DNA of 64,000 nt from positions 845 to 64,844 of the forward strand of contig DATLFP010000009.1 of NCBI GenBank assembly GCA_035540955.1. The letters run 5' to 3'. The notes below the pieces were generated by a model. The model was given only the letters and a program-made list of their open reading frames with translations. It had not been told where the DNA came from and did not search any database. The number at the start of each line of letters is the position of its first letter. Position 1 is the stretch's first letter. This document shows positions 2,147-31,250 of the stretch, one piece after another. The position numbers were made by a program, and so were the translations under genes. Origin of the DNA: Acidimicrobiales bacterium. Its GTDB lineage: Bacteria > Actinomycetota > Acidimicrobiia > Acidimicrobiales > CADCSY01.

Positions 2147-2160
2147 GTAACGTCGGCCCG

Positions 2161-12613: not shown

Positions 12614-13309
12614 TCAGCGCAGGGGGGCGAAGGGGGTCAGCGTGAGGTCGGCGGCGCGGGCGGCGGCGGCGACGGCGCCGTCGCACAGCACCGCCAGCTC
12701 CTGCTCGCGCTCGCGGCCGTACGACAGCGCCGCCGTCCCGCGGCCGGGGTGGCAGGCGATCTCGGTCCAGCCCGGCCCCACGCTGCGGATGACGCCGACC
12801 AGCGCGTCGACCGTGATCCCCTCGGGGTACGGGTCGCCGGTCCCGCTCTGGCCGTAGAACTCGCCGCGGTACACGAAGCCCGGCGTCACCTGGCGCACCG
12901 GGATCCCGAGCCGGCGCCCGGCGTCGCGCAGCAGCCGCCGTGCCGGGCCCTGACGGTGGACGTGCTGGTGCGAGTCGAGGTGGGTCGGCGGGCGGCCGAG
13001 GAGCGCGTCGAACGCGGCCAGCTGGGCGTCGATCTCGGCCGCCACCGCGTCGTCGTCGTCGGTGTCGACGACCGTGTACGCCGGCTCCCACCCTCCGTTG
13101 CCGTGGACCCACTCACCGAGGTCGAGGTGCAGCCCGACGCCGAGCTGCGGGTGGCGCCGGGCCAGGTCGGCGGCCGCCGGCACCGCCTCGGCCCGCACCA
13201 TCAGGCTGGTGCTCGTCACGATGCCACGGACGTACGCCTCGACCACGCCGGCGTTCACCCCGTCGCACAGGCCGAAGTCATCGGCGTTGACGACGACGTG
13301 GCGCGTCAC
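12614..13309 (-). CDS. ChbG/YdjC-family carbohydrate deacetylase
   Basis: GTG start at 13309 (GTGA overlap with the upstream stop). Motifs VNADDFGLCDGVN, TSTSLMV and LDSHQHVH are typical of YdjC-like proteins. Confidence 0.85.
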   Translation of the reverse strand: MTRHVVVNADDFGLCDGVNAGVVEAYVRGIVTSTSLMVRAEAVPAAADLARRHPQLGVGLHLDLGEWVHGNGGWEPAYTVVDTDDDDAVAAEIDAQLAAFDALLGRPPTHLDSHQHVHRQGPARRLLRDAGRRLGIPVRQVTPGFVYRGEFYGQSGTGDPYPEGITVDALVGVIRSVGPGWTEIACHPGRGTAALSYGREREQELAVLCDGAVAAAARAADLTLTPFAPLR

Positions 13310-14256
13310 CGGAGCCGCTCCGTCAGCTCGAGCGCCAGCGCCAGCCAGTCGTGGTCGTGGTCCTCGGGCGGCGCCCACGCCGGCGCCCACCCCAGCCACC
13401 GTATGCACAGGTGCAGCCGGCAGGCGTCGAGGCCATCGTCGGTGACGGCATCCGCCGCCGTCGGGTCCACCGCGCCGAGGGCCTGCCGGTAGGCGTCGAC
13501 GAGCACGCGCCGGGCTTCGTCGTCCCAGCCCTCCACCAGCGCGGCCAGATCGACCAGGGGCGGCCCTACCGCGGCCGTCTCCCAGTCGATCACGGCCACC
13601 CGCGGCTCGGGGGTCTCGACCACGAGGACGTTGGACGGATAGAGCTCGCCGTGCACGAACGTGCTCGGCATCGCGAGGAGTCGTTCGACGACCTCCTCGT
13701 GCCGGGCGAGCACCGGTTGGAGGCGCCGGTCGGTGTCGCCGGCGAACGCCGCCGCTCGTGTCGCCCACTGGCGATAGAAGTCGGCGTCGTAGTCCACGAG
13801 CAGCGACCGCACCGTCGGCGGGGCGTCCTCTTCGAGGTGGGCGGCGTGCAACGACGCCGCCCACCGGGCCACCGCCGTCCAGACGGCGAGGTCGCCGACC
13901 TGCCAGAGCTCGATGCCGTCGACGTGCTCGAGGAACAGCCACCGGCGCTCGCCGTCCTCGACGGCACCGTGGAACATCGGCGATTCGAGCCACGGGGGGA
14001 GGACATCCCGGTACACGGCGACTTCCCGCCGGGGATCGAGCAGGAAGTCCGGCTTGGTGGCGCGGGCGGTCGGCAGCAGGGACCCCGGGCTGAGGTCCTT
14101 CCGCAGCACGCCCGACGGTGTCCGCGCGCCCGGCGGGACGAGGAGGTCGATCGGGGCGCTGGTGGAGTACGCGTGCCGGTGCAGGACCACCGCAGCGTCG
14201 CCCCGCGCGGCGCGGGCAACGAGCTCCTGAGGGGTCGGTGAGCCGTCGCTGCTCAC
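13306..14256 (-). CDS. APH-like (aminoglycoside/choline kinase fold) phosphotransferase
   Basis: 316 aa from GTG 14256 (GTGA overlap with the wecB stop). It has the Brenner-type motif FVHGELYPSNVLV and a VIDWETA (DxD-like) segment. Confidence 0.7.
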   Translation of the reverse strand: MSSDGSPTPQELVARAARGDAAVVLHRHAYSTSAPIDLLVPPGARTPSGVLRKDLSPGSLLPTARATKPDFLLDPRREVAVYRDVLPPWLESPMFHGAVEDGERRWLFLEHVDGIELWQVGDLAVWTAVARWAASLHAAHLEEDAPPTVRSLLVDYDADFYRQWATRAAAFAGDTDRRLQPVLARHEEVVERLLAMPSTFVHGELYPSNVLVVETPEPRVAVIDWETAAVGPPLVDLAALVEGWDDEARRVLVDAYRQALGAVDPTAADAVTDDGLDACRLHLCIRWLGWAPAWAPPEDHDHDWLALALELTERLR

Positions 14257-15359
14257 ACCGCGAGATCCGTCGGTCGCGCCGGCGGGCCCGCGGCGACGCG
14301 ACGGATGAGCTCGTCGGCGATCCGGACCCCGGCGCGTCCGTCCCACGATGCCGGGCGACGGGCCGGCACGCCGTCGCGCAGGACGCGGCGGGCCTCGGCC
14401 ACGATGCGGTCTCGGTCGCGTCCCACCAGCACGTTGGTCCCCTCGGTGATCGTGATCGGCCGCTCGGTGTTGTCCCGGAGGGTGAGGCACGGGACGCCGA
14501 GCACCGTCGTCTCCTCCTGCACGCCGCCGGAGTCCGTGAACACGATGGCGGCCTGCGCCTCGAGGGCGAGGAAGTCGAGGTACCCGAGCGGGTCGACGAG
14601 GCGGAGACCGGCGCCGTGCCCGAGCTCGTCGAGCCGCGCCCGCGTGCGCGGGTGCACCGGGAAGACCAGCGGCACGTCGGCGGCGACCACGTCGATGGCG
14701 TCGACCAGCGCGGCGAGCGTCCGCGTGTCGTCCACGTTCGCCGGCCGGTGCAGGGTCACCAGCCCGTACCCCCGGGCGTCGAGACCGAGCTGCCGCAGCA
14801 CGGGACGCGCCTTCGCCCGGTCGAGGTTGGTCAGCAGCGAATCGACCATGACGTTGCCGACGAGCGCGATCTGGTCGGACCGGTAGCCCTCGGCATGGAG
14901 GTTGTCGACGGCGTCGGGCGAGGGAGCGAGCAGCACGTCGCTCACGCGGTCGGTGACGACGCGGTTGACCTCCTCCGGCATCGCCCAGTCCCGGCTGCGC
15001 AGCCCGGCTTCGACGTGGGCGACGAGCGGTCCCGCCTTGGCGGCGACGATGGCGCATGCCATCGTCGAGTTCACGTCGCCGACGACGACCACGACATCCG
15101 GCTCCAGCTTCTCGAGGAGGGGTTCGAACGCGGTCATGATCCGGCCGGTCTGCTCGGCGTGGCTGCCCGAGCCGACTTCCAGGTGGTGATCGGGAGCCCG
15201 GATGCCGAGCTCGTCGAAGAACACGCCGCTCATGGCGCGGTCGTAGTGCTGCCCGGTGTGCACGAGACAGGTCTCGACGTCCCGGTCTTCGAGCCCGTCG
15301 AGCACCGGCTTGACCTTCATGAAGTTCGGCCGCGCCCCGGCGACGCAGACAACCCTCAT
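14253..15359 (-). CDS. wecB: UDP-N-acetylglucosamine 2-epimerase (non-hydrolysing)
   Basis: Start MRVVCVAGARPNFMK at 15359 (ATGA overlap). Motifs HTGQHYD, VVGDVNST, DSGGVQEE and NTERPIT are present. Confidence 0.9.
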   Translation of the reverse strand: MRVVCVAGARPNFMKVKPVLDGLEDRDVETCLVHTGQHYDRAMSGVFFDELGIRAPDHHLEVGSGSHAEQTGRIMTAFEPLLEKLEPDVVVVVGDVNSTMACAIVAAKAGPLVAHVEAGLRSRDWAMPEEVNRVVTDRVSDVLLAPSPDAVDNLHAEGYRSDQIALVGNVMVDSLLTNLDRAKARPVLRQLGLDARGYGLVTLHRPANVDDTRTLAALVDAIDVVAADVPLVFPVHPRTRARLDELGHGAGLRLVDPLGYLDFLALEAQAAIVFTDSGGVQEETTVLGVPCLTLRDNTERPITITEGTNVLVGRDRDRIVAEARRVLRDGVPARRPASWDGRAGVRIADELIRRVAAGPPARPTDLAV

Positions 15360-16558
15360 GCCGACCGCCGCAGCTGGGCGGACCATCCGAGCATCTCGAG
15401 CAGCCTGCGCGCGAACGCGTCGGAGATCCTGTCAGGTGCGAGCGCGGCCCGGTGCTCGACGATCGCCCGTCGGAGCGGCGCGAGGTCCGTCGTGAGTGCA
15501 GCATGCATGGCGTCGGTCAGGTCCTGTCGGTCGGGTTGGTAGGAGAGCACGCCCGGCATCGCGGCCAGGCCGGCAAGGCCTCCGCGAGCGGCCACGAGCA
15601 CGGGCACGCCGAACGTGACAGCGAGCATCGCCGCGCCCGAGTTCAGCGCCTGGCGGTACGGCAGTACGGCGACGTCCGCGGCGCGGTAGTAGTACTGCAC
15701 GTCTTCGATCGGCACCCGGGCGATCTCGACGGTCGCGTCGAGGCGTCCCGCCGCCCACACGCGCAGCTCGGAGCCGAATCGCTCGTCCGGCGCGTTGCCG
15801 GCAATGACCAGTCGCGCCGGCCGGTCGAGGTCGCGGGACGCGAGTCGTTCGAACGCCGCGAGCAGCTCCTCCACGCCCTTGTACGGCTGCAACGAACCGA
15901 AGAGCAGGAAGACGACCTCGCCGGGCCTGACTCCGAGCTCGCTGCGGGCCTCGGCCCGGCTCACGTGATCGGGATAGGCGCCGGCGTAGGTGGGATGCGG
16001 CACGTGGAAGACCTTGTGCTCGGGGATGGGCGCGCGCTCCCGGAACAGGTCGACGGTGTCGTCGGTCATGACGTGCACGGCGTCTGCGGCGGCGATCAGC
16101 GCCTGCCGCAGGGCGATCTCGTGGTCGAGGTGGCGGGCGTCGTGCGGCAGCACGTTGTGGGCCGTCCACACCAGACGGTGACCCTGGCGCTGCACGGCGT
16201 CGAGCTGGTCGGAGAACGTCGCAACGAGATCGTCGGCCTCGGCCTCGCTCTCGGCCCCCGCCAGCACGTTCGCGATCCAGTGGAGGTGACAGACCACCCG
16301 ACCGGGCCACGGGAGCTCGGCGAGCTCACCGATGGTCTTGACCGGGAGCGTGCCGACGCCATGGTCGATGGTGCGTCCGTACAGCAGGGCTTGGAACGGG
16401 TTGGTGCGGGCCGGAGGTGTGTAGGCGAGCAGGACCGCGTGCGGGTCGTCGTCGTCGCCTCCGCCGAGCCGGTATCCCCTCGCCTCCAGCTCCATGGCCA
16501 GCTCGGCAACGGCGTCGAGGATGCTCTGCTCGTTCCGCAGCACGCGTCCGGTCCTCAT
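15356..16558 (-). CDS. GT4-like (GT-B fold, glycosyl transferases group 1) glycosyltransferase
   Basis: 400 aa. The C-terminal half reads FLLFGSLQPYKGVEELL...YYRAADVAVLPY...NSGAAMLAVTFGVPVL. It is the first gene of a 4-gene overlapping run. Confidence 0.75.
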   Translation of the reverse strand: MRTGRVLRNEQSILDAVAELAMELEARGYRLGGGDDDDPHAVLLAYTPPARTNPFQALLYGRTIDHGVGTLPVKTIGELAELPWPGRVVCHLHWIANVLAGAESEAEADDLVATFSDQLDAVQRQGHRLVWTAHNVLPHDARHLDHEIALRQALIAAADAVHVMTDDTVDLFRERAPIPEHKVFHVPHPTYAGAYPDHVSRAEARSELGVRPGEVVFLLFGSLQPYKGVEELLAAFERLASRDLDRPARLVIAGNAPDERFGSELRVWAAGRLDATVEIARVPIEDVQYYYRAADVAVLPYRQALNSGAAMLAVTFGVPVLVAARGGLAGLAAMPGVLSYQPDRQDLTDAMHAALTTDLAPLRRAIVEHRAALAPDRISDAFARRLLEMLGWSAQLRRSA

Positions 16559-16623
16559 GCTCGGACCTCACGCGGCCTCGTCGACCGGTCGGAAGGGGCG
16601 GGGTGCGATGCGATGATGGATCC

Positions 16624-17664
16624 ATGACGGACACGGCACCGACGTCGTCGAAGCCGCGCGTTGGCGTGGTCGGGTTCATCGGCTGGGGGAACTTCGGCGA
16701 CGAGCTGTTCATGCTCGTCCACCGGCAGTTCCTGTCGGCGGACTTCGACGTCGACCTGCTGCACGATCGCTTCGAGAAGCCGTACTTCAGCCGCCCGGTC
16801 GCCGAGGTCGTCGACGAGGTCGACGCCGTCGTGATCGGGGGCGGCGATCTCGTCATCCCGTGGCAGCTGTCGGAGCTCTACTGGCGCCGCGAGCTGTTGG
16901 AGCGCCCGGTGTTCCTGACGGGCATCGGCGTCCCCCGCTGGGGCGGCTACTCGCGTGCGGTGGTCGACACCATGAAGGAGTTCATCCAGCACCCCAACGT
17001 CCGCTACATCGGAGTCCGCGACGAGCCCAGTCGCGACTGGGTGCAACGGCACCTGCAGCCGAAGATCGAGATCGACTGTGCCCCCGACATCGTGTGCTCG
17101 CTCGATCTGCCGGCAGTCCAGCCGACCGACGAGCGGATCCTCGGCGTCGTCACCCGGAAGCGACGGAACGAGGGCGACGACTTCCTGTGGCTCGAGCGCC
17201 TCTGCGAGAAGGCGGCCCGGCTCGACTACCGCATCCACCACCTCGTGCTCGGAACCGGCGGCACCGGAGCGGCCGACGAGGCGGTCGAGGCCGAGTTCAG
17301 GTTCCCGGGGAAGCAGACGGTGCGCACCGACGATCTGCTCGAGCTGTGCCGCGCCGTCGGTCGCTGCACGGCGCTGGCCAGCATGAAGTTCCACGGCTCG
17401 GTCGTGGCCGCGATGTACGGCGTCCCGTCGCTCGTCCTCTCCCCGACGGACAAGAACCGCAACTTCATGAACATGATCGACCGCCCCGAGCTGCTCTCGA
17501 ACCTGTCCGACCCGCACCTCCCCGATCGCTTCTCGCCGTACCTTCCTCGCATCCCTCGCCAGACGCGAGACTGGCTCCGGGAGACCTCGACCGCGGCGAT
17601 GTTGCGGCTGGTCGAATCGATCCGCCAGGAAGTCGGCGCGGTGCGGCCTCATCGCGTGCACTGA
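16624..17664 (+). CDS. polysaccharide pyruvyl transferase family protein (CsaB/WcaK-like)
   Basis: ATG 16624 (MTDTAPTSSKPRVGVVGFIGWGNFGDELF). It has IGGGDL and a C-terminal MKFHGSVVAAMYGVPSL, typical of PS_pyruv_trans. It is the only plus-strand gene inside the locus. Confidence 0.75.
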   Translation: MTDTAPTSSKPRVGVVGFIGWGNFGDELFMLVHRQFLSADFDVDLLHDRFEKPYFSRPVAEVVDEVDAVVIGGGDLVIPWQLSELYWRRELLERPVFLTGIGVPRWGGYSRAVVDTMKEFIQHPNVRYIGVRDEPSRDWVQRHLQPKIEIDCAPDIVCSLDLPAVQPTDERILGVVTRKRRNEGDDFLWLERLCEKAARLDYRIHHLVLGTGGTGAADEAVEAEFRFPGKQTVRTDDLLELCRAVGRCTALASMKFHGSVVAAMYGVPSLVLSPTDKNRNFMNMIDRPELLSNLSDPHLPDRFSPYLPRIPRQTRDWLRETSTAAMLRLVESIRQEVGAVRPHRVH

Positions 17665-19994
17665 CGATCGTCGAGCAGCGACCGGTACAGGTCGAGGTAC
17701 CGCTCGGCGTTCCGGTCCCACGTGCGCTCCTGCTGGATCCACGTGCGCCCGGCGGTCCCGAGTCTCCGGCGTCGTGCAGGTGACGCGAGCAGCTCGTCGA
17801 TCCGACGTGCCAGGTCGCGTTCGTCCCCGGGGCGGAACAGCAGGCCCCGCTCCTCGGCGCCGACGATCTCCCGCAGCGACGGAAGGTCGGCGACGATCAT
17901 CGCGCGCTCGAGCGCGAGGGCCTCGTAGGGCTTCAGGGGCGTCACGTGATCGGCGGCGTAGTCGGGACGGCGGGGCACGACGAACACGTCGATGAGCGAG
18001 TAGTAGCGGTGGATGTCGCGGTGGTCGACCTCTCCGGTGAACACCACCCGATCACGGATCCCCAGCGACCGGGTCAGCCGCTCCATGCTCGGGCGGTCGG
18101 GTCCTTCTCCGACCAAGAGGCACCGGACGTCGGGGCGAGCGCGCGCCACCTCGGCGAAGCCACGCAGGAGCACGTCGTGCCCCTCGCGGTGCGAGATGTT
18201 GGAGATGTAGCCGACGATCGGGGCGTCGACGGCGATGCCCAGCCGCTGCTTCAGGTCGACGTCGGGACCGGCGACCTCGAAGACGCCGATGTCGACGGCG
18301 TTCGGCACCACGGTGATCTTCCACTCGGGCACTCCCCGCTCGACGAGCACGGCCGCCATCGCGTTGGAGATGGTCACGACGGCGTCGGCCTCGGCCATGC
18401 ATCGGTTCTCCTGGGCGATGCGGAGCCGGGTCCACTCGCGCGTCAGCTTGTCGTGCAGCCGGGGTGAGCCCCACAGGTGCTCGTGGAGCGAACGGACCTC
18501 GTACACCAGCGGGAGATCGAAGTGGCGGGCGAGGGCGATCCCCTTGAGCGCGAGCTCGTAGCCCCGAAACCCGGAAGCGGCGTGGATGAGGTCGGCGCCC
18601 CGCCGGCGGATCACGGCGGCGGTGGCGACGGCATCGAGGGTGAGGCGCCGGTCGAGGGGGAGCGAGGTGCTGTCGCCGGGCATCCGGAGGTGGACGTGAC
18701 GCACGCCTTCGACGTCGTGCTCGTCGGAGAAGTCGTCGCGGCCGTGACTGGCGGGGTACCCGAGCGGGGTGACGACGTACGGGGCGAGCCCGAGCTCACG
18801 CTGCGAGCGGACCACGTTGAGGTTCCGGATGGCCCCGCCCGTGCTCTCGAACGGGTAGCTCACCTTGAACAGATGGCACGGCTGGATCGTCTCGTGCGCG
18901 GTGGGGGCGGCCGCCGAGCGTCCCGGGACCTCGGGCAACCACTCGGTGTCCAGCTCCCGCAGGGTCCCGACGGCCCGCGTGTACGCCGCCGTCGCCTGCT
19001 CCGAGCCGGACACGAGTGCGAGCTCGCGCAGCGTCTCGGCGTGGTCCGAGAGCCGGCCCTCGGCGAGCTGGAGGCGGGCGAGCATCCGGAGGGAGTCAGC
19101 ATCGGCGTCGCCGCTGGCGATGCGCCGCCCCAGGGCGGGTCCGGTGATCGGCTCCACCACGGGCTGGCCGCCGAGGAAGAGGACGTCGTCCACCGCGCGG
19201 TCCCACGCCCGGAACTGCAGGCGGACCATCGTCGACCTGCCGGGCGGTTCGAGGAGACACGCAAAGGGGCTCACCGAGCCACCGGCGGTCGTCGGAAGGT
19301 ACCGGTACCAGCCGATGTCGTCGCGCGCCGAGCGCGCGAGGTGGCGGTACGGCCCGGGGATGGCCTGGCCCTCGCCGTCAACGAACTCGACGGCGACGAG
19401 CACGGCCCGCGCCGACGGTGTCTCGGTCCCGACGATCGTTCCCGACAGCAGGTACGAGCGGTCGTCGGTGACGGTGAGGTGCACCTCGATCGGCTCGTTG
19501 GTGGTGAGCTGCAGGGGGCCGGCCGACGCCCGGCGCTTCGCCCGCGAGGTCTTCTTCGCCACTGGGGGTGGCAACACCGGGCTGACCGACACGCGCGTGT
19601 CGGTGGGCCCCGGACGCTCGAGCAGGAACACCAGGCCGCCGACCTCGTCGAACGCCACCAGGCTGCAGGCGCTGTCGAGGTAGCGATGGAGCTCGTCGTA
19701 GTAGTCGAGCCACCAGAGCGCCCAGGTCGGCAGCACGAAGTACCGCGCCCCGCCCTCGCGGAGCAGCTCGAGGTGGGCGACGGCCTCGCCACCGGTCGCC
19801 GGGTTGTACCCGAGCCACGAGCCGTCGTCGGCCTGGGGGAAGTGCATGCCGACGGCGTCGCCGACGGCGAGCAAGGCGTCGTCGCCGCGGGTGACCACGA
19901 GCACGCGCTCGCCGGCGGGCACGGTGCGGCGGACGAGGTCGACGGTCCGCTCGCTGGCGCGCTCGGTGCGGGCGTCCTGCTCCAGGGCGGTCAT
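17649..19994 (-). CDS. multidomain glycosyltransferase: unassigned N-terminal module + unassigned beta-rich middle + C-terminal GT4 domain
   Basis: Start MTALEQD at 19994 (ATGA overlap). The C-terminal ~380 aa are GT4-like (GYISNISHREGHDVLL, EALALERAMIVADLPSLREIV). The N-terminal ~110 aa repeat the C-terminal module of the 23044..25164 protein. Confidence 0.8.
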   Translation of the reverse strand: MTALEQDARTERASERTVDLVRRTVPAGERVLVVTRGDDALLAVGDAVGMHFPQADDGSWLGYNPATGGEAVAHLELLREGGARYFVLPTWALWWLDYYDELHRYLDSACSLVAFDEVGGLVFLLERPGPTDTRVSVSPVLPPPVAKKTSRAKRRASAGPLQLTTNEPIEVHLTVTDDRSYLLSGTIVGTETPSARAVLVAVEFVDGEGQAIPGPYRHLARSARDDIGWYRYLPTTAGGSVSPFACLLEPPGRSTMVRLQFRAWDRAVDDVLFLGGQPVVEPITGPALGRRIASGDADADSLRMLARLQLAEGRLSDHAETLRELALVSGSEQATAAYTRAVGTLRELDTEWLPEVPGRSAAAPTAHETIQPCHLFKVSYPFESTGGAIRNLNVVRSQRELGLAPYVVTPLGYPASHGRDDFSDEHDVEGVRHVHLRMPGDSTSLPLDRRLTLDAVATAAVIRRRGADLIHAASGFRGYELALKGIALARHFDLPLVYEVRSLHEHLWGSPRLHDKLTREWTRLRIAQENRCMAEADAVVTISNAMAAVLVERGVPEWKITVVPNAVDIGVFEVAGPDVDLKQRLGIAVDAPIVGYISNISHREGHDVLLRGFAEVARARPDVRCLLVGEGPDRPSMERLTRSLGIRDRVVFTGEVDHRDIHRYYSLIDVFVVPRRPDYAADHVTPLKPYEALALERAMIVADLPSLREIVGAEERGLLFRPGDERDLARRIDELLASPARRRRLGTAGRTWIQQERTWDRNAERYLDLYRSLLDDRQCTR

Positions 19995-21124
19995 CGGGTC
20001 GCCTCGAGGACGGCTTCGAGCACGGCGCCGAGCACGCGATCGCTGTCGAGGTGCTCCTCCGCGATCCGACGGGCGGCGACCCGGTGGCGCTCCGGCTCGG
20101 CGAGGACGTCGGCCATGGCCGCGGCGGCGCCGTCCGCGGAGTCGAACCCCAACAGCCCGGCGTCGGCCGGAAGGTGCTCGCTCCATCCGGTGTCCTGGGC
20201 GACCACGGGACGCCCGCTCGCCAGGTAGCAGGCCGAGCGATCGCTGAACCACCCCGATCGGGACACGACGTAGCCCTCCTTGGCGATGGCGAGCTCACCG
20301 AGCGAGCCCTGGATGAACGACCGGTAGGCGTCGGGGTCGTGGGCAACCGCTTCCGGATCGAGCCATCGCCATCCGTGCTCTTCGAGCAGGGCGACGTCCT
20401 TGTGCTCGCCGGGGTGGATCCCGAGCGCGGGTAGCAGCGCCGCGGGGGCGAGGCGCGGGAGCTCGACGAACGCCCGCCACGCGTGGGCCTTCTGGCCGTG
20501 GCGCACCCCGTCGTGCTCGACCGACCCGTAGCCCCGCCAGCTGGCGACGGTGGTGAACGCCGGGGTCGTCACCGGCCCGGCTGCCGGCCAGGCGGTCAGC
20601 ACGACGGGGGGCAGCGTGGTGAGCCAGCGGCGCCCGTCCGTCGGGATGGTGTTCTCGGCGGCGCCGATGTTCAGCCCGACGGTCACGAAGTGCGTGTGGC
20701 CGTCGAAGCCCATGTCGATCCCGTCGGCCTGCCACAGCTGGGTGAACGCGGGGTCGAGGTCGAGATAGACGCGCGCCGGTGCCGGGTGCACGAGCTCGGA
20801 GTGGCGCAACATGCCGGCCACGTTGACGACGACGTCGGCGTGGCGGGCGAACGCCGCCAGCTGCGGGAACGGTACGCCCTCGGTCCGGCCTCGGCCGTCG
20901 ACCAGCGCGGCGCGATCGGCGAGTCCGAAGTCGGCCGCCACCGAACGGAAGTAGGACACGCTCGGTGGCCGGAGCACGTCGACCGGCTCCACCAGCACGA
21001 CGTCGTGGCCGAGCCGTCGCAGCCCGAGCACCCACTGGAGCACGGCCCAGGTGGCGCCGCCGTGGTGGGGCACCCCTGCAACCATGCCGGCGACGACGAT
21101 CCGCAGTCGGTCAGGGCGCAACAC
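19991..21124 (-). CDS. GT-B-like protein of unassigned family, paralogue 1
   Basis: It shares blocks with 21111..22232 and 25161..26330 (TTVASWRG, KAH..R.F..LPR, GWFSDRS..YLA.GRPV..QDTG). The start is taken as GTG 21124 by N-terminal alignment to the paralogues (LRIVVAGMVAG). The track start at 21235 would overlap the upstream gene by 125 nt. Confidence 0.65.
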   Translation of the reverse strand: MLRPDRLRIVVAGMVAGVPHHGGATWAVLQWVLGLRRLGHDVVLVEPVDVLRPPSVSYFRSVAADFGLADRAALVDGRGRTEGVPFPQLAAFARHADVVVNVAGMLRHSELVHPAPARVYLDLDPAFTQLWQADGIDMGFDGHTHFVTVGLNIGAAENTIPTDGRRWLTTLPPVVLTAWPAAGPVTTPAFTTVASWRGYGSVEHDGVRHGQKAHAWRAFVELPRLAPAALLPALGIHPGEHKDVALLEEHGWRWLDPEAVAHDPDAYRSFIQGSLGELAIAKEGYVVSRSGWFSDRSACYLASGRPVVAQDTGWSEHLPADAGLLGFDSADGAAAAMADVLAEPERHRVAARRIAEEHLDSDRVLGAVLEAVLEATR

Positions 21125-25164: not shown

Positions 25165-26330
25165 GGCTGCACCCCCAGGTCGTCGAGCATGCGACCGAGC
25201 ACGAGGTCCGAGTCGAAGTGCTCGCGGGCGATCGCGGCGGCAGCCTTGGCGTGGCGATCCCAGTCGCGCTCGATCTCGAGCAGCGCGTCGGCCGCCTCCT
25301 CGACGGTGCGGTACGCGAACAGCCCTTCACCGGTGGGTAGGACCTCGCCGAAGGCGGTGTCCTGGGTGACGACGGGCCGGCCGGCGGCGAGGTAGGTCGC
25401 CGACCGGTCCGAGAACCACCCCGTCTTCAGGCGCACGTTCTGGTCCTTGGCGACGGTGACCTCGCCGCGGGACGCGGTGATGTAGTCGCGGTACCGGTCG
25501 GCGTCGGCCGACACCTCGACCGCCGGTCGGACCGCGAAGCCCCGGCGCTCGAGGCGCTCCCGGTCGCGCGCCATGAAACCGGCGAGGGCGAGCTCGATCG
25601 GGAGCCGCGTGCGCCGGGGCAGCTCGAGCACCTTGGCCCACTCGGTGTGCTTGCTCCAGGTGTAGGGCTCGCCGTCGAGCTCGACCGTGCGCCACGACTG
25701 GCGCCAGTTGCCGATCGTCGTCCACGTCGGTCCGGCGGGCACCTCGCGCTCCCACAGGTCGAGCACGACCGGCTGCCGGGTGGGGTGGAACCGGAACCGA
25801 GCGTCGACGGGGAGGTTGCAGCCCGGTCGTCCGTAGTTCTCGCCGAAGGTGAAGAAGGCGCAGTGCGGCTCGAGATAGTCGACGGTCTCGGCCCGGCCCT
25901 CGTGCAGCTCGACCTGCACCTGCACCGGATCGGTCTCCAGGTAGACGAGCCGACCGCCGGCGGCGTGCTCCGGACGCGGCGTGGTCCCACCGTGGAGGTT
26001 CACGACCACGGCGGCCGAACGGTACAGGTCGTCGAGGCTGTCGGCCACCGGGCCCACGGCGCGGCCGTCGTCGTGGAGCGCCTGGAACGCCCACCGGTCG
26101 GCGAGCCCGAACCGCTCGAGCGTGCGTCCGATGAACCCGGCCGCCGCGTCGGTGCCCGGGTCATCGGCCGAGCGGCAGAACGCCGAGGGGTTGATGCCGT
26201 GCGCCTCGACGTAGAACGCGTCACACCCGAGCCGCTCCAGGCCGAGCAGGTAGTGGGCCGTCTGCCACACGACGCCGGCCACGGGCATCTTGGTCATCAT
26301 CCCGAGCACGACGACGCGGGGCCGGCTCAT
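25161..26330 (-). CDS. GT-B-like protein of unassigned family, paralogue 3
   Basis: 389 aa with MSRPRVVVLGMMTKMPVAGVVW, TTIGNWRQSW and GWFSDRSATYLAAGRPVVTQDTAF. ATGA overlaps occur at both ends. Confidence 0.65.
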   Translation of the reverse strand: MSRPRVVVLGMMTKMPVAGVVWQTAHYLLGLERLGCDAFYVEAHGINPSAFCRSADDPGTDAAAGFIGRTLERFGLADRWAFQALHDDGRAVGPVADSLDDLYRSAAVVVNLHGGTTPRPEHAAGGRLVYLETDPVQVQVELHEGRAETVDYLEPHCAFFTFGENYGRPGCNLPVDARFRFHPTRQPVVLDLWEREVPAGPTWTTIGNWRQSWRTVELDGEPYTWSKHTEWAKVLELPRRTRLPIELALAGFMARDRERLERRGFAVRPAVEVSADADRYRDYITASRGEVTVAKDQNVRLKTGWFSDRSATYLAAGRPVVTQDTAFGEVLPTGEGLFAYRTVEEAADALLEIERDWDRHAKAAAAIAREHFDSDLVLGRMLDDLGVQP

Positions 26331-28393
26331 CGCCGCGCCCCCCGAGGGGTGGCCCCCGGGCGCATCCGGCGCAGCAGGCGGCTGCCCCGCTCGGGGGCGA
26401 CGGGCCGCGGCTGGCGCCGCTCGGGTCGGTCGGCGGGGTCGAGGGGATCCGTGAGGTCGACCACCGGCTCGGGGTCACGCCGGAGCGTTGGTGTCGGCTC
26501 CCGCTCCGGGGTCGGTCGGGACGAGGTCGCGGCGGCGGGCACCTCGTTGCCGTCGGCGAGCGCCGGGGTGAAGAACCCGATCCGCCGGCCGGTCTGGGCC
26601 TCGTGCAGGAGCCGGTAGAGCCCGTCGGCGCGCAACAGCGTGCCGTGGTCTCCGCGCTCGATCACCTCGCCATCGTTGATGACGAGGATCTGGTTGGCGT
26701 TGCGAACGGTGGACAGGCGGTGGGCGACCATGAAGGTGGTGCGCCCCTGCATGAGCCGCCCCAACGCTTCGAGGATCACCGCCTCGGTGCGGGAGTCGAT
26801 CGACGACGTGGGCTCGTCGAGCACGAGGATCGGTGCGTCCTTCAGGAAGGCGCGGGCGACGGAGATCCGCTGACGTTCCCCGCCCGAGAGCTTGGCGCCG
26901 CGCTCGCCGAGCTTGGCCCGGTACTTGCCGGGGAGCTTCATGATGAAGTCGTGGGCGTTGGCCGCCTTCGCCGCCTCCACCACCTCGTCCTTGGACGCAT
27001 CGGGACGGCCGTATCGGATGTTGTCCTCGATGGTTCCGGTGAACAGCAGAGGTTCCTGCATCACCATGCTGATGTTCCTGCGGAGCGACTCGAAGGTGAG
27101 GTCCCGCACGTCGACGCCGTCAACCAGCACCCGACCCTCGTGCGGGTCGAAGAAGCGCGGCAGGAGGTTCATGAGCGTGCTCTTGCCGGCGCCGGTCGGG
27201 CCGACGATCGCCACCGACTCGCCCGCGCCGACCTCGAAGGAGATGCCGCGCAACGTGCCCTCGCGACCCTCGTAGCTGAAGCTGACGTGCTCGAAGGTCA
27301 CCGCGCCGGCGGGGTTCTCCAGGGCCCGGGCGTCGGGCCTCTCGACCACATCGGGCTGGGTGTCGAGCAGCTCCATCGCCATCTCGAAGCCGATCAGCTG
27401 CTCCTGGATCGAGTTCATCGTCGTGCTGATCGTCTCGAGAGGCGTGTATACCGAGCGGATGTACGACAGGAGCACCAGCAGCTCACCCACGCTGAGGTTG
27501 CCGCTGCGCACCTGGTAGGCGCCGAGGCCGAGGACGGCGGCGGTGCCGCACGCGGTGATCAGGTTGACGACGAGGGTGAACACCGTCTGCTTCACCGTCA
27601 CCTTCACCCGAGCCGCGACTGCCTCCTCACCCTGCTCGCGGAACCTGTGGTACTCGTCGCGCTCCCGGTTGAACGCCACGATCACCCGGAGCATCTGCAT
27701 CGCCTCGTGCACCATGTGCAGCGAGCGGATCTCGAGCCCCTTCACCCTCCGGACCTCGGGTCCGATCTTCGAGCCGTAGTAGCCGGTCGAGTAGTAGATG
27801 AACGGCACCACCGCCAGCGACAGCAGGGCCACGGGCGCGTTCAGCCGGAAGGCGATCCAGAACATGCCGACGAGGGTCAGCGCGCTCTGCACGAGTGGGA
27901 ACGCCGACACGGTGACGCCGCCGACCGACGCCGCTTGGCCGTTGATGCGCCCCATGAACTCACCGGTGAGTCGCTCGTCGTGGTACGCGAACGAGAGGCG
28001 CTGGACGTGCTGGAACAGCTCGCTGCGGAAGTCGAGCACCATCCGCATGTCGATCCGGGTGTTCACGTAGTCGTTGATCACCTGGAGCCCGTTCATCACC
28101 AGCGTGACCACGAGCAGCAGGCCGACCACCACCCCCACCTGGCCCCAGATCGAGTCGCCGACGAGGTCGCGCAGCGGCCCCGGCAGCGGCTTGTCGCCGA
28201 GGACGCTGTCGATCATGAGCGCCACCGGCCACGGCTCGAGCAGGGCCACGCCGGCCCCCATTCCCATGAGCAGCATGGAGAGGGCGACCAGCCACCGGTG
28301 CGGGCGCAGGTACGGCAGCGTCAGCGGCCAGGCCTTCAGGTTCTCCCTGATGCTGATCTTGCGCTTCGTCTCCGTGGTGGTCTCGTCGCTCAC
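26327..28393 (-). CDS. fused TMD-NBD ABC exporter (MsbA/PglK-like) with a Pro/Arg-rich C-terminal tail
   Basis: GTG 28393, preceded by AGGAGCGGA and in a GTGA overlap with the upstream stop. It has six-helix exporter-type TMD features, Walker A GPTGAGKSTL, signature LSGGERQR and Walker B LVLDEPTSSID. The track ORF (to 30013) is an out-of-gene extension. Confidence 0.9.
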   Translation of the reverse strand: MSDETTTETKRKISIRENLKAWPLTLPYLRPHRWLVALSMLLMGMGAGVALLEPWPVALMIDSVLGDKPLPGPLRDLVGDSIWGQVGVVVGLLLVVTLVMNGLQVINDYVNTRIDMRMVLDFRSELFQHVQRLSFAYHDERLTGEFMGRINGQAASVGGVTVSAFPLVQSALTLVGMFWIAFRLNAPVALLSLAVVPFIYYSTGYYGSKIGPEVRRVKGLEIRSLHMVHEAMQMLRVIVAFNRERDEYHRFREQGEEAVAARVKVTVKQTVFTLVVNLITACGTAAVLGLGAYQVRSGNLSVGELLVLLSYIRSVYTPLETISTTMNSIQEQLIGFEMAMELLDTQPDVVERPDARALENPAGAVTFEHVSFSYEGREGTLRGISFEVGAGESVAIVGPTGAGKSTLMNLLPRFFDPHEGRVLVDGVDVRDLTFESLRRNISMVMQEPLLFTGTIEDNIRYGRPDASKDEVVEAAKAANAHDFIMKLPGKYRAKLGERGAKLSGGERQRISVARAFLKDAPILVLDEPTSSIDSRTEAVILEALGRLMQGRTTFMVAHRLSTVRNANQILVINDGEVIERGDHGTLLRADGLYRLLHEAQTGRRIGFFTPALADGNEVPAAATSSRPTPEREPTPTLRRDPEPVVDLTDPLDPADRPERRQPRPVAPERGSRLLRRMRPGATPRGARR

Positions 28394-30816
28394 TCCGCTC
28401 CTCGCCGGATGCATGCGGGCAGGGTCACTCGACTGCGGAACCATCCCCAGCCGAGGTCGATGCCGACGAGCGCGAGCGCGGCGGCGCCGAGGGAGGGGAG
28501 GACGACGCCGACGGCCGCCGCCAGCACGGTGGCGACGGCAACCCGCACCCGGCGCACCCGGGGGCGGACGCGGATCTGGACCGACCCGATCGGATGGCCG
28601 CTCGAGACCAGCTCGCCCGCCATCAGCAGCGACAGCGCCACCTCGGCGTCGTGGTCCTCCCACCCGGTCGGGGGCGCCACCCGCATCCCCGTGCGCCGCA
28701 GGTGTTCGATGACGGCGGCGGTGATGCCGGCTCGGGGTCGGTCGGCGGGCAGGAGGACCACGCCGCCGGAACGGCGCTGGGGCGGGCCGGGCAGCCGCTC
28801 GGCGGCCGGGAGATCGCGGCGGGCGAGCGGCGCCTCCCGGGTCCGGCCCCAGGTCCGGACCAGGGGCTGCAGCAGATGGTGAACGGCCACCGCCAGGCGG
28901 AACCGCACTTGACCGGTGACGAGTCGGCGGGGTGGCGTCGCCCGCCACGCGTCGATCCCGCCCAGCAGCGCCAGCCCGACGACGGCCACGAGCGCGGGGA
29001 GGAGCAGCCAACGAGAGAGCAGCCCGAGCGGTGCGGTGGCGAGGGCCCCAGTGGCGACGGGCACGCCGACCTGGTGCGCGACGTCGAGCCCGTGGCCGCC
29101 GCCCCGATACACGCTCTGGTAGGCGGCGTCGCCGTAGATGCCGCGGTAGATGCGGGCCCGCCCGGTCGGCGGCACGAGGGAGTTGTAGATCCGTCCCCGC
29201 CACCGCGCCGTCCCGATCGAGCTGAAGCGATCGGGATGGCGGGCCTCGACCAGCGCCTCGGCCCGGCCGTAGCCCCGCTGCTGACGCAGGTAGCGGCGCA
29301 GCCCCGGACGGCGGTGGTGCCACACGAGGGCGGCGGGGTGGAAGCCGATCGTCCACCTGCGGTCGAGGACCTTCCAGCACAGGTCGACGTCGTCGCCGGC
29401 GGCGGTGTAGATCGGGTCGAAGCCGCCGACCTCCTCGAGCACCTGCTTCCAGAACGCCATGTTGCAGCCGGGGACGTGCTCGGCGCGGTCGTCGGTGGTC
29501 AGGACGTGGACCGGGCCTCCCGGCGACTGCGCCACGACCTGGGCCCCGACCGGGTCGTCGAGCGGCGGCACGTTCGGGCCGCCGGCGCCACCGACGTCGC
29601 GACCGTCGAAGCCCAGCGCGAGGTAGTACGGCCACTCGGGAGTCGGATAGGCGTCGGAATCGAGGTAGGCGACGATCTCGCCGCGCGCGGCGCGGAACCC
29701 CTCGTTGCGGGCGACCGACAGCCCGCCGTGCGGGAGGCGCAGGACCCGGGCTCGGGGGTGGCGCTCGGCGAGCGCGGCGGTGTCGTCGGTCGATCCGTCG
29801 TCGACCACGAGGATGTCGAGGTCGGGGTAGTCGAGCGCGCACGTGTGGCGGAGGCACTCGTCGATGGTCTCGGCCGCGTTGTAGGCGCAGATCACGACGC
29901 TCATCGACGGCCAGTCGTCGTCGAGATCGGCGACGGTCATGGCGTTCCACCGCGCAGCCATGTCGAGCGCCGGTCTCGGCGTGCGGTCGGCGCGGGTGAG
30001 GCCGAAGTTCCACCCCTCCACCGCGTGGTCACCGACCCACCACTCGTCGGTCCACGAGAAGAGGAATGTGCCGGCGACGCCGCGCTCGAGCGCCGTCTCC
30101 AGCTGCCAGTCCACGGCATCGGCCTGGCGGTGCTCGCCCGCCTCCGTCGACCCGGCGTCGAGGCCGAGCTCACCCAGCACCAGGGGCCGGTCGCCGGCGA
30201 GGTTGTGGAGCCGCGTCAGGTACTGGCGGAAGTCGCGGCGGCGCTCGAGGAACAGGTTGAACGTGAGGAAGTCGAGATCGTCGAGCGGCAGGTACTCGGC
30301 GGTCGGGTAGTTGGCGAAGGTGACGAGTCGGTCGGGGTCCTCCTCGCGCACGACGTCGACCAGCTCGCTGATGACGCCGGCGACCTGCTCGGTGCCCATC
30401 CACCGGATGACGTCGGCGGGGATCTCGTTGCCGAGGGAGAGGGCGAACACCTGGTCGGCGCCGGCGAGGTGGCGCGCCGTGTGGCGGACCTCCTCGCGGG
30501 CGTCGCGGACCATGCGGCGCACGGCGCGGCGGGAGGAGCCGACGAGGTAGCGCCAGTCGGGCCAGAAGACGCCGGCGAACACTCGCAGGTTCCAGTCGGC
30601 GGCGACCTCGAGGAGGTCGTCGGGGGGCGGGGTGTAGGTGCGCACGACGGTGAAGCCCGCCTCGTTCATCGCCGCCATGTCGAGCTTGAGCTGCTGGCGC
30701 TCCGGGAACCGCGCTCCGTCGGGGTCGCGGGGACGGAAGGTGCCGTAGCCGACGCCGCGGACGGGGAAGCGCTCGCCGCCCTGCTCGAACTGCTTGCCAT
30801 CGACGCGGATCGGCAT
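28390..30816 (-). CDS. GH clan-A-like TIM-barrel domain fused to a synthase-like GT2 domain and a C-terminal membrane region
   Basis: ATG 30816, preceded by GAGGAGGAGCGAGG. The N-terminus has LSLGNEIP (acid/base NE) and VLGELGLD. The middle is GT2 (VVICAYNAAETI, VVDDGSTD, LDSDAY, GCNMAF, RQQRGYG resembling Q-x-x-R-W). The C-terminus has several hydrophobic helices. Confidence 0.8.
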   Translation of the reverse strand: MPIRVDGKQFEQGGERFPVRGVGYGTFRPRDPDGARFPERQQLKLDMAAMNEAGFTVVRTYTPPPDDLLEVAADWNLRVFAGVFWPDWRYLVGSSRRAVRRMVRDAREEVRHTARHLAGADQVFALSLGNEIPADVIRWMGTEQVAGVISELVDVVREEDPDRLVTFANYPTAEYLPLDDLDFLTFNLFLERRRDFRQYLTRLHNLAGDRPLVLGELGLDAGSTEAGEHRQADAVDWQLETALERGVAGTFLFSWTDEWWVGDHAVEGWNFGLTRADRTPRPALDMAARWNAMTVADLDDDWPSMSVVICAYNAAETIDECLRHTCALDYPDLDILVVDDGSTDDTAALAERHPRARVLRLPHGGLSVARNEGFRAARGEIVAYLDSDAYPTPEWPYYLALGFDGRDVGGAGGPNVPPLDDPVGAQVVAQSPGGPVHVLTTDDRAEHVPGCNMAFWKQVLEEVGGFDPIYTAAGDDVDLCWKVLDRRWTIGFHPAALVWHHRRPGLRRYLRQQRGYGRAEALVEARHPDRFSSIGTARWRGRIYNSLVPPTGRARIYRGIYGDAAYQSVYRGGGHGLDVAHQVGVPVATGALATAPLGLLSRWLLLPALVAVVGLALLGGIDAWRATPPRRLVTGQVRFRLAVAVHHLLQPLVRTWGRTREAPLARRDLPAAERLPGPPQRRSGGVVLLPADRPRAGITAAVIEHLRRTGMRVAPPTGWEDHDAEVALSLLMAGELVSSGHPIGSVQIRVRPRVRRVRVAVATVLAAAVGVVLPSLGAAALALVGIDLGWGWFRSRVTLPACIRRGAE

Positions 30817-30862
30817 GCGGTCGCCTCGCTCCTCCTCGGTGGTCGCGCTCGCCCTCCGGGCT

Positions 30863-30878
30863 GTCACGTGACCGTCAC
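30863..30878. promoter_or_regulatory. palindrome GTCACGTGAC plus an adjacent CGTCAC half-site in the leader of the glycan operon
   Basis: A perfect 10-bp palindrome lies 47 nt upstream of the ATG at 30816. Function unknown. Confidence 0.2.
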
Positions 30879-31200: not shown

Positions 31201-31229
31201 GTCGAGCGGGGAACGCCCCGCCGCTCGAC
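31201..31229 (-). terminator. candidate intrinsic terminator hairpin after the nitroreductase gene
   Basis: GTCGAGCGGGG-aacg-CCCC(gcc)GCTCGAC, 11 bp with a 3-nt bulge. It lies 21 nt past the stop at 31251. No U-tract is present, which is common in high-GC actinobacteria. Confidence 0.4.
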
Positions 31230-31250
31230 GCCGCACCCGCGGCGAGCGCG

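Follow-up and report, generated by a model that had tools for sequence, protein, structure and literature searches.

A thirteen-gene locus of an Acidimicrobiales bacterium encoding putative cytoplasmic assembly, decoration and ABCB-type export of an envelope glycan

Organization of the locus

The DNA studied here, hereafter the window, is a stretch of 64,000 nucleotides of contig DATLFP010000009.1 (assembly GCA_035540955.1) from an Acidimicrobiales bacterium. We found that it contains a locus of 13 genes (12614-30816, Table 1) that appears to encode the assembly, decoration and export of a glycan. Genes were called by the GC content at codon positions (third-position GC, GC3, of 0.89-0.97 in the locus, in a window of 70-76% GC) together with a codon log-odds score. 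The codon statistics gave exactly the coordinates of a first-pass annotation made from the letters alone, with 12 minus-strand genes in two runs of eight (g1-g8) and four (g10-g13) and one embedded plus-strand pyruvyl transferase gene (g9), but the locus measures 18.2 kb, not the 19 kb given there. Domains were searched for with Pfam and NCBIfam profiles, using Pfam gathering scores as thresholds. All domain assignments made in the first pass held in these searches, with the sulfotransferase and the pyruvyl transferase scoring above the gathering scores, and among the NCBIfam models searched only WecB (g11) reached an equivalog-level fit. The g6 protein is 100% identical to NCBI HVM51638.1, from an Acidimicrobiales metagenome-assembled genome (MAG).

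The locus encodes seven glycosyltransferase (GT) domains, which are GT2 domains in g1 and g4, three GT-B paralogues (g3, g6 and g7) and GT4 domains in g8 and g10. No enzyme of the locus has a signal peptide or an N-terminal hydrophobic segment, and membrane segments were found only in g1 (C-terminal helices) and g2.

Table 1. Genes and other features of the locus and its borders
Feature	Position	Strand	Length	Assignment
g1	28390-30816	-	808 aa	Glycoside hydrolase-type barrel fused to GT2 (Pfam GT2 105 bits); first gene of the long operon
g2	26327-28393	-	688 aa	ABCB-type half-transporter (type IV exporter fold), transmembrane domain then nucleotide-binding domain
g3	25161-26330	-	389 aa	Paralogue a of the 375-aa GT-B family
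g4	23044-25164	-	706 aa	GT2 (aa 24-135+), PAPS-type sulfotransferase (318-495), ~110-aa module (565-698)
g4 module	23071-23472	-		~110-aa module, C-terminus of g4
g5	22229-23047	-	272 aa	Class I SAM-dependent methyltransferase (Methyltransf_24 66 bits, cutoff 26)
g6	21111-22232	-	373 aa	Paralogue b of the 375-aa GT-B family
g7	19991-21085	-	364 aa	Paralogue c of the 375-aa GT-B family (377 aa if the start is GTG 21124)
g8	17649-19994	-	781 aa	~110-aa module (aa 11-142), ~240-aa middle region, GT4 (386-775)
g8 module	19569-19964	-		~110-aa module, N-terminus of g8
g9	16624-17664	+	346 aa	Polysaccharide pyruvyl transferase; 3' end overlaps the g8 3' end by 16 nt (17649-17664)
g10	15356-16558	-	400 aa	GT4 (Glycos_transf_1 56 bits); first gene of the short operon, coupled to WecB
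g11	14253-15359	-	368 aa	Non-hydrolysing UDP-GlcNAc 2-epimerase (WecB/MnaA), supplying UDP-ManNAc
g12	13306-14256	-	316 aa	APH-fold kinase-like protein (APH 71.6 bits)
g13	12614-13309	-	231 aa	YdjC-family carbohydrate deacetylase (YdjC 161 bits); last gene of the locus
Region 5' of g1	30817-31250		434 bp	Non-coding; no ORF with coding statistics; putative promoter and leader
Region between g10 and g9	16559-16623		65 bp	Divergent intergenic region; putative promoters, from its position
GT2-like gene	11641/11674-12552	+		Convergent with g13, 61 bp tail to tail

At nine of the ten same-strand junctions the genes of the locus overlap by 4 nt, compared with 2 of 30 junctions elsewhere in the window (Fisher p = 1.9e-6), and all nine read ATGA or GTGA on the minus strand, as first described. 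The tenth, between g6 and g7 at 21111, is a gap of 25 nt with one choice of start and an overlap of 14 nt with the other. The ATG start of g1 at 30816 is backed by alignment with three orthologues, and the overlapping starts of g2, g12 and g13 agree with the genes called independently on an ENA contig of 99% identity. For g4, the overlapping start is the gene call on an orthologous MAG contig, where g3 and g4 also overlap by 4 nt; the ENA caller places this start 30 nt further in.

From its position, the region between g10 and g9 may contain promoters for both the short operon and g9, and the region upstream of g1 may hold the promoter and leader of the eight-gene operon. Scans for sigma-70-type promoters and intrinsic terminators and an Rfam search returned none in the locus, the consensus being uninformative for an actinobacterial lineage of 72% GC. 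A 365-aa open reading frame (ORF) at 16555-17652, which would be a 13th coupled minus-strand gene, was rejected as a non-coding shadow frame because of its codon-position GC (0.91/0.45/0.69) and because the Pfam match, to pyruvyl transferase, lies in the opposite frame. This shadow ORF has ATGA over the g8 stop and over the g10 start, mimicking a coupled gene, and its frame is likewise open in the orthologous locus L003.

A GH157-like barrel fused to a membrane GT2, and its partner exporter

The g1 protein is composed of a TIM barrel of glycoside hydrolase (GH) clan GH-A (aa ~1-300), a GT2 catalytic domain (~305-530), membrane or interface helices (~574-667), a small alpha/beta domain (680-754) and a hydrophobic hairpin (756-807). 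We compared its AlphaFold2 (AF2) model (pLDDT 84.6) with known structures by Foldseek, and found that the barrel was nearest to GH157, GH164, GH2 and GH5_18. The GT2 domain with its helices matched PcManGT (6yv7, TM-score 0.54 normalised to PcManGT), reportedly a membrane GT2 with a minimal cellulose-synthase-like fold. A phmmer search of PDB sequences aligned g1 with LaGH157 (1.8e-9) with both catalytic glutamates matched: E131 (LGNEIP) aligned with the NE motif and E216 (LVLGELG) with E224, the residue mutated in 9g4n, and both were invariant in 40 homologues. By these alignments the barrel appears to be GH157-like and to retain both catalytic glutamates, with putative activity.

The GT2 motifs of g1, DDG (339-341), DSD (386-388), GDD (474-476) and QQRGY (512-516), were also invariant in 40 homologues, QQRGY being merely a variant of the synthase motif QxxRW. 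A synthase-type channel of at least six helices is not present in g1, which has about three to four helices, all after the GT domain. There is no hydrophobic segment before aa ~575, and therefore both catalytic domains should lie in the cytoplasm. The first-pass view that the locus has no polymerase stood in that no Wzy was found; the rest of it is uncertain, g1 being a membrane-anchored GT2 with a minimal cellulose-synthase-like fold. We counted at least 6836 homologues of g1, none with a functional name, and this count, like that of the GT-B family below, is a lower bound among the 8,000 word-sharing candidates scored.

The g2 protein matched ABC_membrane (114 bits) and ABC_tran (115 bits), and its matches in the PDB were Sav1866 (1e-101) and the halves of ABCB1. 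Scores against MsbA_rel (434 bits, cutoff 780) and MsbA TIGR02203 (423, cutoff 602) were below equivalog level, those against the glucan exporter model PRK13657 (405) and the HepA family (328) were below their cutoffs, and PglK NF050066 gave 146.8 bits against a cutoff of 1000. The gene is translationally coupled to g1 here, and in 36 of 43 related loci it follows g1 directly. We propose that g2, the only exporter of the locus, is the exporter or flippase of the glycan. The first-pass annotation had seen no flipping gene, which its own list of genes contradicts: the ABCB-type half-transporter on it is the obvious exporter, and PglK and Wzk provide precedents (PMC2841628). The C-terminal tail of g2 (~85 aa, aa ~603-688, 26327-26587) is of low complexity, rich in Pro, Arg and Glu, and is missing from the 619-623-aa orthologues in the related loci L004 and L006.

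Glycosyltransferases and tailoring enzymes of the long operon

The three proteins g3, g6 and g7, which had been described as unassigned GT-B-like paralogues, are true paralogues of 36-46% mutual identity (36% between g3 and each of the others, 46% between g6 and g7), and AF2 and Foldseek gave them a GT-B fold. The AF2 model of g6 (pLDDT 95.9) matched GT4-type GT-B enzymes, namely tll1591, the MMP mannosyltransferase 7qsg, BshA, HepE and PimA, with TM ~0.6 at 10-17% identity. For g3 there was only a sub-threshold Glyco_trans_1_2 match and no NCBIfam match, and a look-up of its exact sequence returned nothing. The orthologous subfamily of g3 is present in distant loci, and orthologues of g7 with 51-69% identity are present in L003, L004, L006 and L007. 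At least 4579 homologues of this 375-aa family were found, all named 'hypothetical'. On the modelled structure, the three proteins appear to form a new, divergent GT-B family.

In g4, the GT2 domain (Glycos_transf_2, 62 bits) is followed by a sulfotransferase of the type using 3'-phosphoadenosine-5'-phosphosulfate (PAPS; Sulfotransfer_3, 62.3 bits, cutoff 27). Read from the sequence, a 5'-phosphosulfate-binding-like GAPRSGH lies at aa 323-329 and a 3'-phosphate-binding-like RDP at aa 421-423, and the CurM sulfotransferase was a PDB match (2.8e-5). There are 221 homologues of g4, nearly all metagenomic, some with a fused methyltransferase or GT4; single proteins combine GT2, sulfotransferase and methyltransferase, or sulfotransferase, GT4 and GT2. 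The S-adenosylmethionine (SAM)-dependent methyltransferase g5 has orthologues in L003 and L005 and is fused to the GT2-sulfotransferase in P0037. In g8, the GT4 domain matched Glycos_transf_1 (109 bits) and Glyco_transf_4 (63 bits), and the ~240-aa middle region had no Pfam match.

The C-terminus of g4 and the N-terminus of g8 are occupied by two copies, 42.5% identical, of a ~110-aa 'WHFPQ/WWL' module covered by no Pfam model, with the consensus ..VLVVSKGD..LL..GR.AWHFPQ...G.YAG.HPADS..AI.HLE.LR..GA.FL..P.TA.WWLDHY... An exhaustive search of a representative protein library found the module in 2,507 cluster representatives, at 1-6 copies per protein. Among the best matches its partners were GT4, GT2, SAM methyltransferases, sulfotransferases and YdjC or DUF4915, and it also occurred alone and in tandem; its fusion partners were thus confined to domains that build or tailor glycans. 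We suggest that it may serve in docking or in holding a substrate.

Directly upstream of the related locus L004 lies a block for PAPS synthesis and recycling (CysC (APS_kinase), CysN, CysD and CysQ). Because this block adjoins a relative of the locus, sulfation gains support, and we consider the product probably sulfated.

The WecB, pyruvyl transferase and deacetylase segment

The g9 protein scored 63.6 bits against PS_pyruv_trans (cutoff 25.3), with GC3 of 0.85-1.0 in its frame, and its counterpart in L003 has the same antisense placement and 81% identity. The WecB assignment of g11 was supported by Epimerase_2 (357 bits) and TIGR00236 (322.9 bits, cutoff 210.15). The GT4 protein g10, coupled to WecB, is the only candidate ManNAc transferase. 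Among 88 loci, g10 was found in L002 and L003 only, and WecB, the g10 GT4 and the pyruvyl transferase occurred in 2 of the 88. These genes are a lineage-specific accessory add-on to a conserved core.

The kinase-like protein g12 has HGELYPSN (aa 202-209) in place of the canonical HGD...N, with Glu for the catalytic Asp, and keeps IDWE. The variant, HGE(Y/F/L)Y..N, is conserved in 11 g12 orthologues from distant loci, and a second APH gene, often present in those loci, is canonical (HCDLQPKN). The deacetylase g13 scored 140 bits against the ChbG-type model PRK02134 and 104 bits against HpnK, both below cutoff.

L003 is the only other genome with the WecB and pyruvyl transferase genes, and a protein combining CAP and S-layer homology (SLH) domains is encoded nearby (L003 1515-2723), ~1.6 kb upstream of the orthologous locus. 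SLH matched it in two stretches (49.7 bits, cutoff 20.8), and its gene sits between a GT2 gene and a UDP-glucose dehydrogenase gene.

Conservation and distribution of the core

Comparison of synteny with relatives showed that the full 13-gene order, including the antisense pyruvyl transferase, is kept in L003 (MAG GCA_040905815.1) at 56-81% protein identity. The flanks there differ (UDP-glucose dehydrogenase, CAP-SLH protein and GT2), and because the order is kept despite them, the 13 genes form one unit. A scan of genome contigs with g4 led to one MAG only. L005 is frameshifted by long-read assembly errors and was excluded from the comparison of gene structure. All-against-all clustering of the ORFs of the loci was contaminated by shadow ORFs and was used only to confirm recurrent partners.

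Distant loci of Actinomycetota type keep g1, the ATP-binding cassette (ABC) transporter, the GT2-sulfotransferase, two to three GT-B paralogues and a giant GT2/GT4 protein, together with the methyltransferase, further sulfotransferases and APH, and the sugar-supply genes are swapped. One such relative has rmlABCD (dTDP-rhamnose) and UGD (UDP-glucose dehydrogenase); such genes in relatives therefore point to a variable sugar supply around a fixed core. In L004, a LytR-CpsA-Psr (LCP) ligase and a CW_binding_2 protein lie immediately upstream with the PAPS block.

A metagenome scan with the g1 alignment found at least 508 relatives. We examined 80 g1 loci, in which the GC content of 0.32-0.74 points to many phyla, and counted partners only in loci with enough sequence. 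Besides the ABC half-transporter, the partners of g1 were the 375-aa GT-B family (23 of 29 loci), YdjC (12 of 28), APH (9 of 28) and the GT2-sulfotransferase (5 of 29, close relatives only); in the 12 distant loci with YdjC, it co-occurs with g1, the ABC transporter and the GT-B family. An Acidobacteria-like locus is compact, with eight genes (g1, APH, APH, an outer-membrane barrel, ABC, GT-B, YdjC and GT4), and a Planctomycete-like contig carries orthologues of all three GT-B subfamilies with stand-alone sulfotransferases. These results show that g1, the ABC half-transporter and the 375-aa GT-B family, with YdjC and APH in part of the loci, constitute a conserved system.

Another distant g1-ABC-GT-B locus (L088) is flanked by two membrane-anchored sulfatase-family proteins (1834-3495 and 13892-15883; LtaS/OpgB/EptA-like, with 4-5 transmembrane helices and Sulfatase), a pair that hints at extracytoplasmic transfer of phospho-substituents onto the exported glycan in that lineage.

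The first-pass annotation overlooked this widespread, uncharacterised core, which belongs to a very large family of loci from soil bacteria, and also the GT2-like gene convergent with g13 (Table 1). Glycos_transf_2 matched the latter over a partial profile at 33.6 bits, and a counterpart was found in 0 of 88 related loci; its membership in the system is uncertain.

Proposed mechanism and alternatives

We read the locus as a cytoplasmic assembly line and exporter for a complex anionic envelope heteroglycan, probably polyprenyl-carried and exported in the style of PglK and Wzk, and we judge the chances of this reading as a whole to be evenly balanced. Cytoplasmic assembly followed by ABC export is highly probable, and a lipid carrier is slightly favoured over its absence. 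Synthesis and decoration of the glycan would take place on the cytoplasmic side of the membrane, the decorations being O-sulfation with sulfate from PAPS, O-methylation, N-deacetylation, a pyruvate ketal, probably on ManNAc, and possibly phosphorylation. Beside the exporter, membrane-anchored g1 would extend or remodel the backbone, and its GH157-like barrel, which appears catalytically intact, may trim or transglycosylate the chain, with the ~110-aa module on g4 and g8 perhaps holding the tailoring enzymes in one complex. The finished glycan would then cross the membrane via a g2 homodimer, as undecaprenyl-PP-linked glycans do via PglK and Wzk. The carrier would most likely be polyprenyl phosphate, for which a housekeeping enzyme of the WecA/TagO type, with its gene outside the locus, would do the priming, and an LCP ligase would attach the product to the wall, where in this lineage it may present pyruvylated ManNAc as a ligand for SLH-domain proteins.

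A polyprenyl carrier and LCP attachment are suggested by the LCP and CW_binding_2 neighbours of L004, by the SLH neighbour of L003, and by the acceptors of pyruvyl transferases, since the known bacterial polysaccharide pyruvyl transferases, to our knowledge, act on lipid-linked acceptors. For the link between pyruvylated ManNAc and SLH proteins that was raised in the first pass, the CAP-SLH protein ~1.6 kb from the L003 locus speaks in favour. A role of the product as SLH ligand is possible but rather doubtful.

The Pfam scan covered 47 of the 56 ORFs called in the window (33 of the 42 outside the locus), the nine others being 69-178 aa long. The ORFs scanned contained no polyprenyl-phosphate priming transferase, Wzx/Wzy, ABC-2 permease, LCP, SLH or PAPS genes, no MOP-family flippase, Wzy polymerase or polysaccharide co-polymerase (PCP), and no ABC2_membrane or Wzt-type protein that would indicate Wzm/Wzt, which bears out the earlier statement that genes for priming, Wzx/Wzy and Wzm/Wzt are missing from the window. 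The other ORFs of the window are housekeeping (SUF, an extracytoplasmic function (ECF) sigma/anti-sigma pair, PepF, pyruvate dehydrogenase, arginyl-tRNA synthetase and lipoate genes). The survey around related loci took in 86 non-core flank ORFs and the polytopic membrane ORFs; no priming transferase, flippase or ligase recurs there, and the flanking sequence of 86 loci yielded no priming transferase. The polytopic membrane ORFs sampled outside the core, ten from eight related loci, were MFS, PMT_2, AI-2E, BPD_transp_1, T2SSF or LtaS-like. Because an unlinked priming gene is normal for ABC-dependent pathways, the lack of one here is not in itself unusual.

Several points weigh against the polyprenyl-carried reading. 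No priming transferase, LCP, ligase or oligosaccharyltransferase was present in the window ORFs scanned, and none recurs among the 86 loci, LCP occurring once. In its scores g2 does not discriminate between lipid-linked and soluble cargo, those against MsbA and against the NdvA glucan exporter being about equal. We know of no established role for a cytoplasmic glycoside-hydrolase domain in lipid-linked pathways. The pyruvyl transferase had been called CsaB-like and set beside WecB; the family assignments of both proteins stand, but g9 scored only 59.3 bits, over a partial profile, against CsaB TIGR03609 (cutoff 213.1) and is not a CsaB equivalog, and the window ORFs scanned had no Glyco_tran_WecG match, the mark of a GT26 (TagA/WecG) ManNAc transferase. 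The possible phosphorylation proposed in the first pass keeps the APH fold in its favour, yet the catalytic Asp is replaced by Glu, so that the kinase activity of g12 is uncertain and phosphorylation would be the weakest of the proposed decorations. Finally, the evidence consists throughout of sequence and genomic context, and the host is uncultured.

The most serious rival is carrier-free synthesis, which we consider unlikely. Here g1 would start and extend a free or self-primed glycan, its barrel would act as a transglycosylase for branching, length control or cyclisation, other enzymes would add side chains and decorations, and the ABC half-transporter would export a soluble product. This explanation is supported by a GH-A barrel with both catalytic glutamates fused, on the cytoplasmic side, to a membrane-anchored GT2 that is almost always followed by an MsbA/NdvA-like exporter, g2 scoring nearly as high against the glucan exporter model as against MsbA. 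It also agrees with the lack of a priming transferase in or near any of the 86 loci across many phyla, and with the compact Acidobacteria-like loci, which add only an outer-membrane barrel. GH and GT fusions that make cyclic glucans are precedents (PMC10901819, PMC10237404); the arrangement matches that for cyclic beta-1,2-glucan (Cgs with ChvA/NdvA/Cgt), and the decoration logic that of Nod factors (NodC/B/S/H). However, g1 is neither of the GT84/GH94 type of Cgs nor a GH17 protein with an eight-helix channel like the Pseudomonas NdvB, whose GH is periplasmic (PMC10237404). With seven GT domains and a varied set of nucleotide-sugar genes, the product looks more like a heteroglycan than a glucan, and relatives have an LCP ligase, a wall-binding protein and an SLH protein among their neighbours. 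As general knowledge has it, moreover, known bacterial pyruvyl transferases use lipid-linked intermediates.

A more far-reaching proposal, which we regard as distinctly unlikely, is that g1 and g2 represent an unrecognised, phylum-spanning and primer-free route, in which a GH157-like transglycosylase/GT2 'mini-synthase' is coupled to MsbA-like export, with dedicated GT-B, YdjC and HGE enzymes docked via the ~110-aa module, and which in Acidimicrobiales has been elaborated to a sulfated, pyruvylated, SLH-anchoring wall glycan.

The product might instead be a defined lipid-linked oligosaccharide, capped by methyl, sulfate and pyruvate, flipped in a PglK-like manner and transferred to S-layer or SLH proteins, but this we hold to be very unlikely. 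The number of GT domains would fit one glycan of about 7-8 sugars, there is no evident chain-length regulator or polymerase, and in systems of this kind the flippase is a PglK-type exporter (PMC2841628). One distant locus has a PMT_2 (GT-C) gene 6.5 kb upstream, and the SLH protein adjoins L003. Against this, an oligosaccharyltransferase (STT3/PglB, PglL/Wzy_C) was not found in the window ORFs scanned and does not recur in related loci, the synthase-like fold of g1 suggests repeated addition, and an LCP ligase adjoins L004.

It is most improbable that two unrelated operons, one for export and sulfation (g1-g8) and one for UDP-ManNAc, deacetylation, kinase and pyruvyl functions of a different polymer (g9-g13), lie side by side by chance, as two transcription units with an opposite-strand gene between them and the restriction of WecB, g10 and the pyruvyl transferase to 2 of 88 loci might suggest, because both units occur in the same order in L003, at 56-81% identity and with differing flanks, and YdjC and HGE-type APH co-occur with g1, the ABC transporter and the GT-B family in distant phyla. 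An aminoglycoside-like, natural-product reading of the GT-B, deacetylase, APH and ABC genes was dropped, as there were no cyclitol or aminotransferase genes.

Other genes in the window

An ECF sigma factor gene (8618-9142) and a gene for a 565-aa zf-HC2 anti-sigma-like protein (6931-8628) form a minus-strand group at 6931-9142, a few kb from the locus, beside an M15 peptidase gene (5786-6850). Two genes for c-di-GMP proteins, EAL-GAF-GGDEF (2-2146, plus strand) and GGDEF (37064-38299, plus strand), also lie in the window. The ECF sigma group and the c-di-GMP proteins may regulate envelope functions.

About 1.6 kb upstream of the locus, beyond nitroreductase and metallo-beta-lactamase-fold genes, a minus-strand pair (32451-33142) consists of a PIN-domain toxin gene (32451-32870) and an upstream 91-aa ORF (32867-33142) that overlaps it by 4 nt. 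On the near-identical ENA contig this ORF has a weak PhdYeFM antitoxin match, and the pair is a type II toxin-antitoxin system. Further along the plus strand, a fused lipB-lipA gene (57803-59398, 531 aa; LplA-B_cat, LIAS_N and Radical_SAM) lies directly downstream of the genes for dihydrolipoamide dehydrogenase (54983-56383) and the E2 acyltransferase (56394-57800).

Significance and comparison with known systems

We found no description of this locus type in the literature, and no equivalog model or paper identifies it as a well-characterised conserved cluster, an outcome for which the first-pass annotation had allowed. Of two PDB codes followed into the literature, 9OMH led to an O-antigen fucosyltransferase unrelated to the locus and 9FZ9 to no publication. 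Genetically defined sulfated polysaccharides are rare in bacteria: a 2026 paper describes them as confined to cyanobacteria (PMC13390465), although marine Vibrio and Cobetia are likewise known to have sulfated capsules. If the reading is true, Acidimicrobiia would carry a sulfated and pyruvylated wall glycan, a chemistry new to Actinomycetota, which are abundant in soil and water and hardly cultured. The core is very common in metagenomes and is annotated merely as 'hypothetical' or 'glycosyltransferase', so that one solved member would annotate thousands of loci. It would also test ABCB-type exporters as a general alternative to Wzm/Wzt and Wzx in the export of monoderm wall glycans, and would show the role of a cytoplasmic glycoside hydrolase domain in glycan synthesis.

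In Helicobacter pylori, the PglK homologue Wzk moves the finished Und-PP-linked O-antigen, and wecA is unlinked (PMC2841628). The locus resembles the Wzk and PglK pathways in its half-transporter with fused transmembrane and nucleotide-binding domains, in its cytoplasmic glycosyltransferases, in a glycan finished before export and in the unlinked priming gene. It differs in that g2 is below the equivalog level of PglK and MsbA, in that no WaaL or PglB partner is present in the locus, and in the monoderm host; sulfation, pyruvylation and the GH-GT2 fusion have no counterpart in those pathways.

With the Wzm/Wzt or TarGH pathways for O-polysaccharides, wall teichoic acid and rhamnose polysaccharides, the locus shares cytoplasmic assembly, ABC export and multi-domain GTs, whereas its exporter is a type IV ABCB protein, not an ABC-2 permease with a separate nucleotide-binding domain, and has no carbohydrate-binding module. 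The methyltransferase and kinase-like protein could cap the chain as WbdD terminators do. WbdD, however, is one coiled-coil kinase/methyltransferase, and g5 and g12 are separate genes ~8 kb apart, of other families and with HGE in place of HGD; given two separate proteins and an atypical kinase motif, we have low confidence in a WbdD-like phospho-methyl cap.

The WecB-type epimerase beside PS_pyruv_trans recalls the CsaB/SLH secondary cell-wall polymers of Bacillus anthracis and Paenibacillus alvei, in which pyruvylated ManNAc is the SLH ligand, and so do the SLH protein adjoining L003 and the LCP ligase adjoining another relative. Unlike these systems, the locus has a pyruvyl transferase far below the CsaB score, the window ORFs scanned had no TagA (GT26), TagO, Wzx or Wzy, and the pair is an add-on to a larger core.

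The cyclic glucan systems, Cgs with ChvA/NdvA/Cgt (PMC10901819), likewise have a glycoside-hydrolase-type domain fused to a membrane GT and an MsbA-like partner exporter, and they need no lipid carrier or priming gene. Only this logic of GH and GT plus exporter is common to both, since g1 combines a GH157-like barrel with a small GT2 rather than GT84 and GH94 with cyclase domains. Pseudomonas NdvB is a GH17-GT2 protein with a BcsA-like GT, a periplasmic GH and an eight-helix channel (PMC10237404), whereas the GH of g1 is predicted to be cytoplasmic and no channel is present. The locus also has many GTs and decoration enzymes beyond those of cyclic glucan systems.

As in two known or proposed clusters for sulfated polysaccharides, the synechan cluster xss of Synechocystis (PMC8205485) and wps-1 of Actinoplanes missouriensis (PMC13390465), PAPS-type sulfotransferases lie inside a polysaccharide cluster; wps-1 further encodes a methyltransferase, a kinase-like protein and a glycoside hydrolase (PMC13390465). 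Both of these clusters are Wzx/Wzy-dependent with PCP-type proteins, and have no GH-GT2 fusion, ABCB exporter, 375-aa GT-B family or ~110-aa module. Set beside the known systems, the locus is an ABC-transporter-dependent glycan assembly system, three of whose components are unstudied, namely the GH157-like/GT2 fusion, the 375-aa GT-B family and the ~110-aa module.

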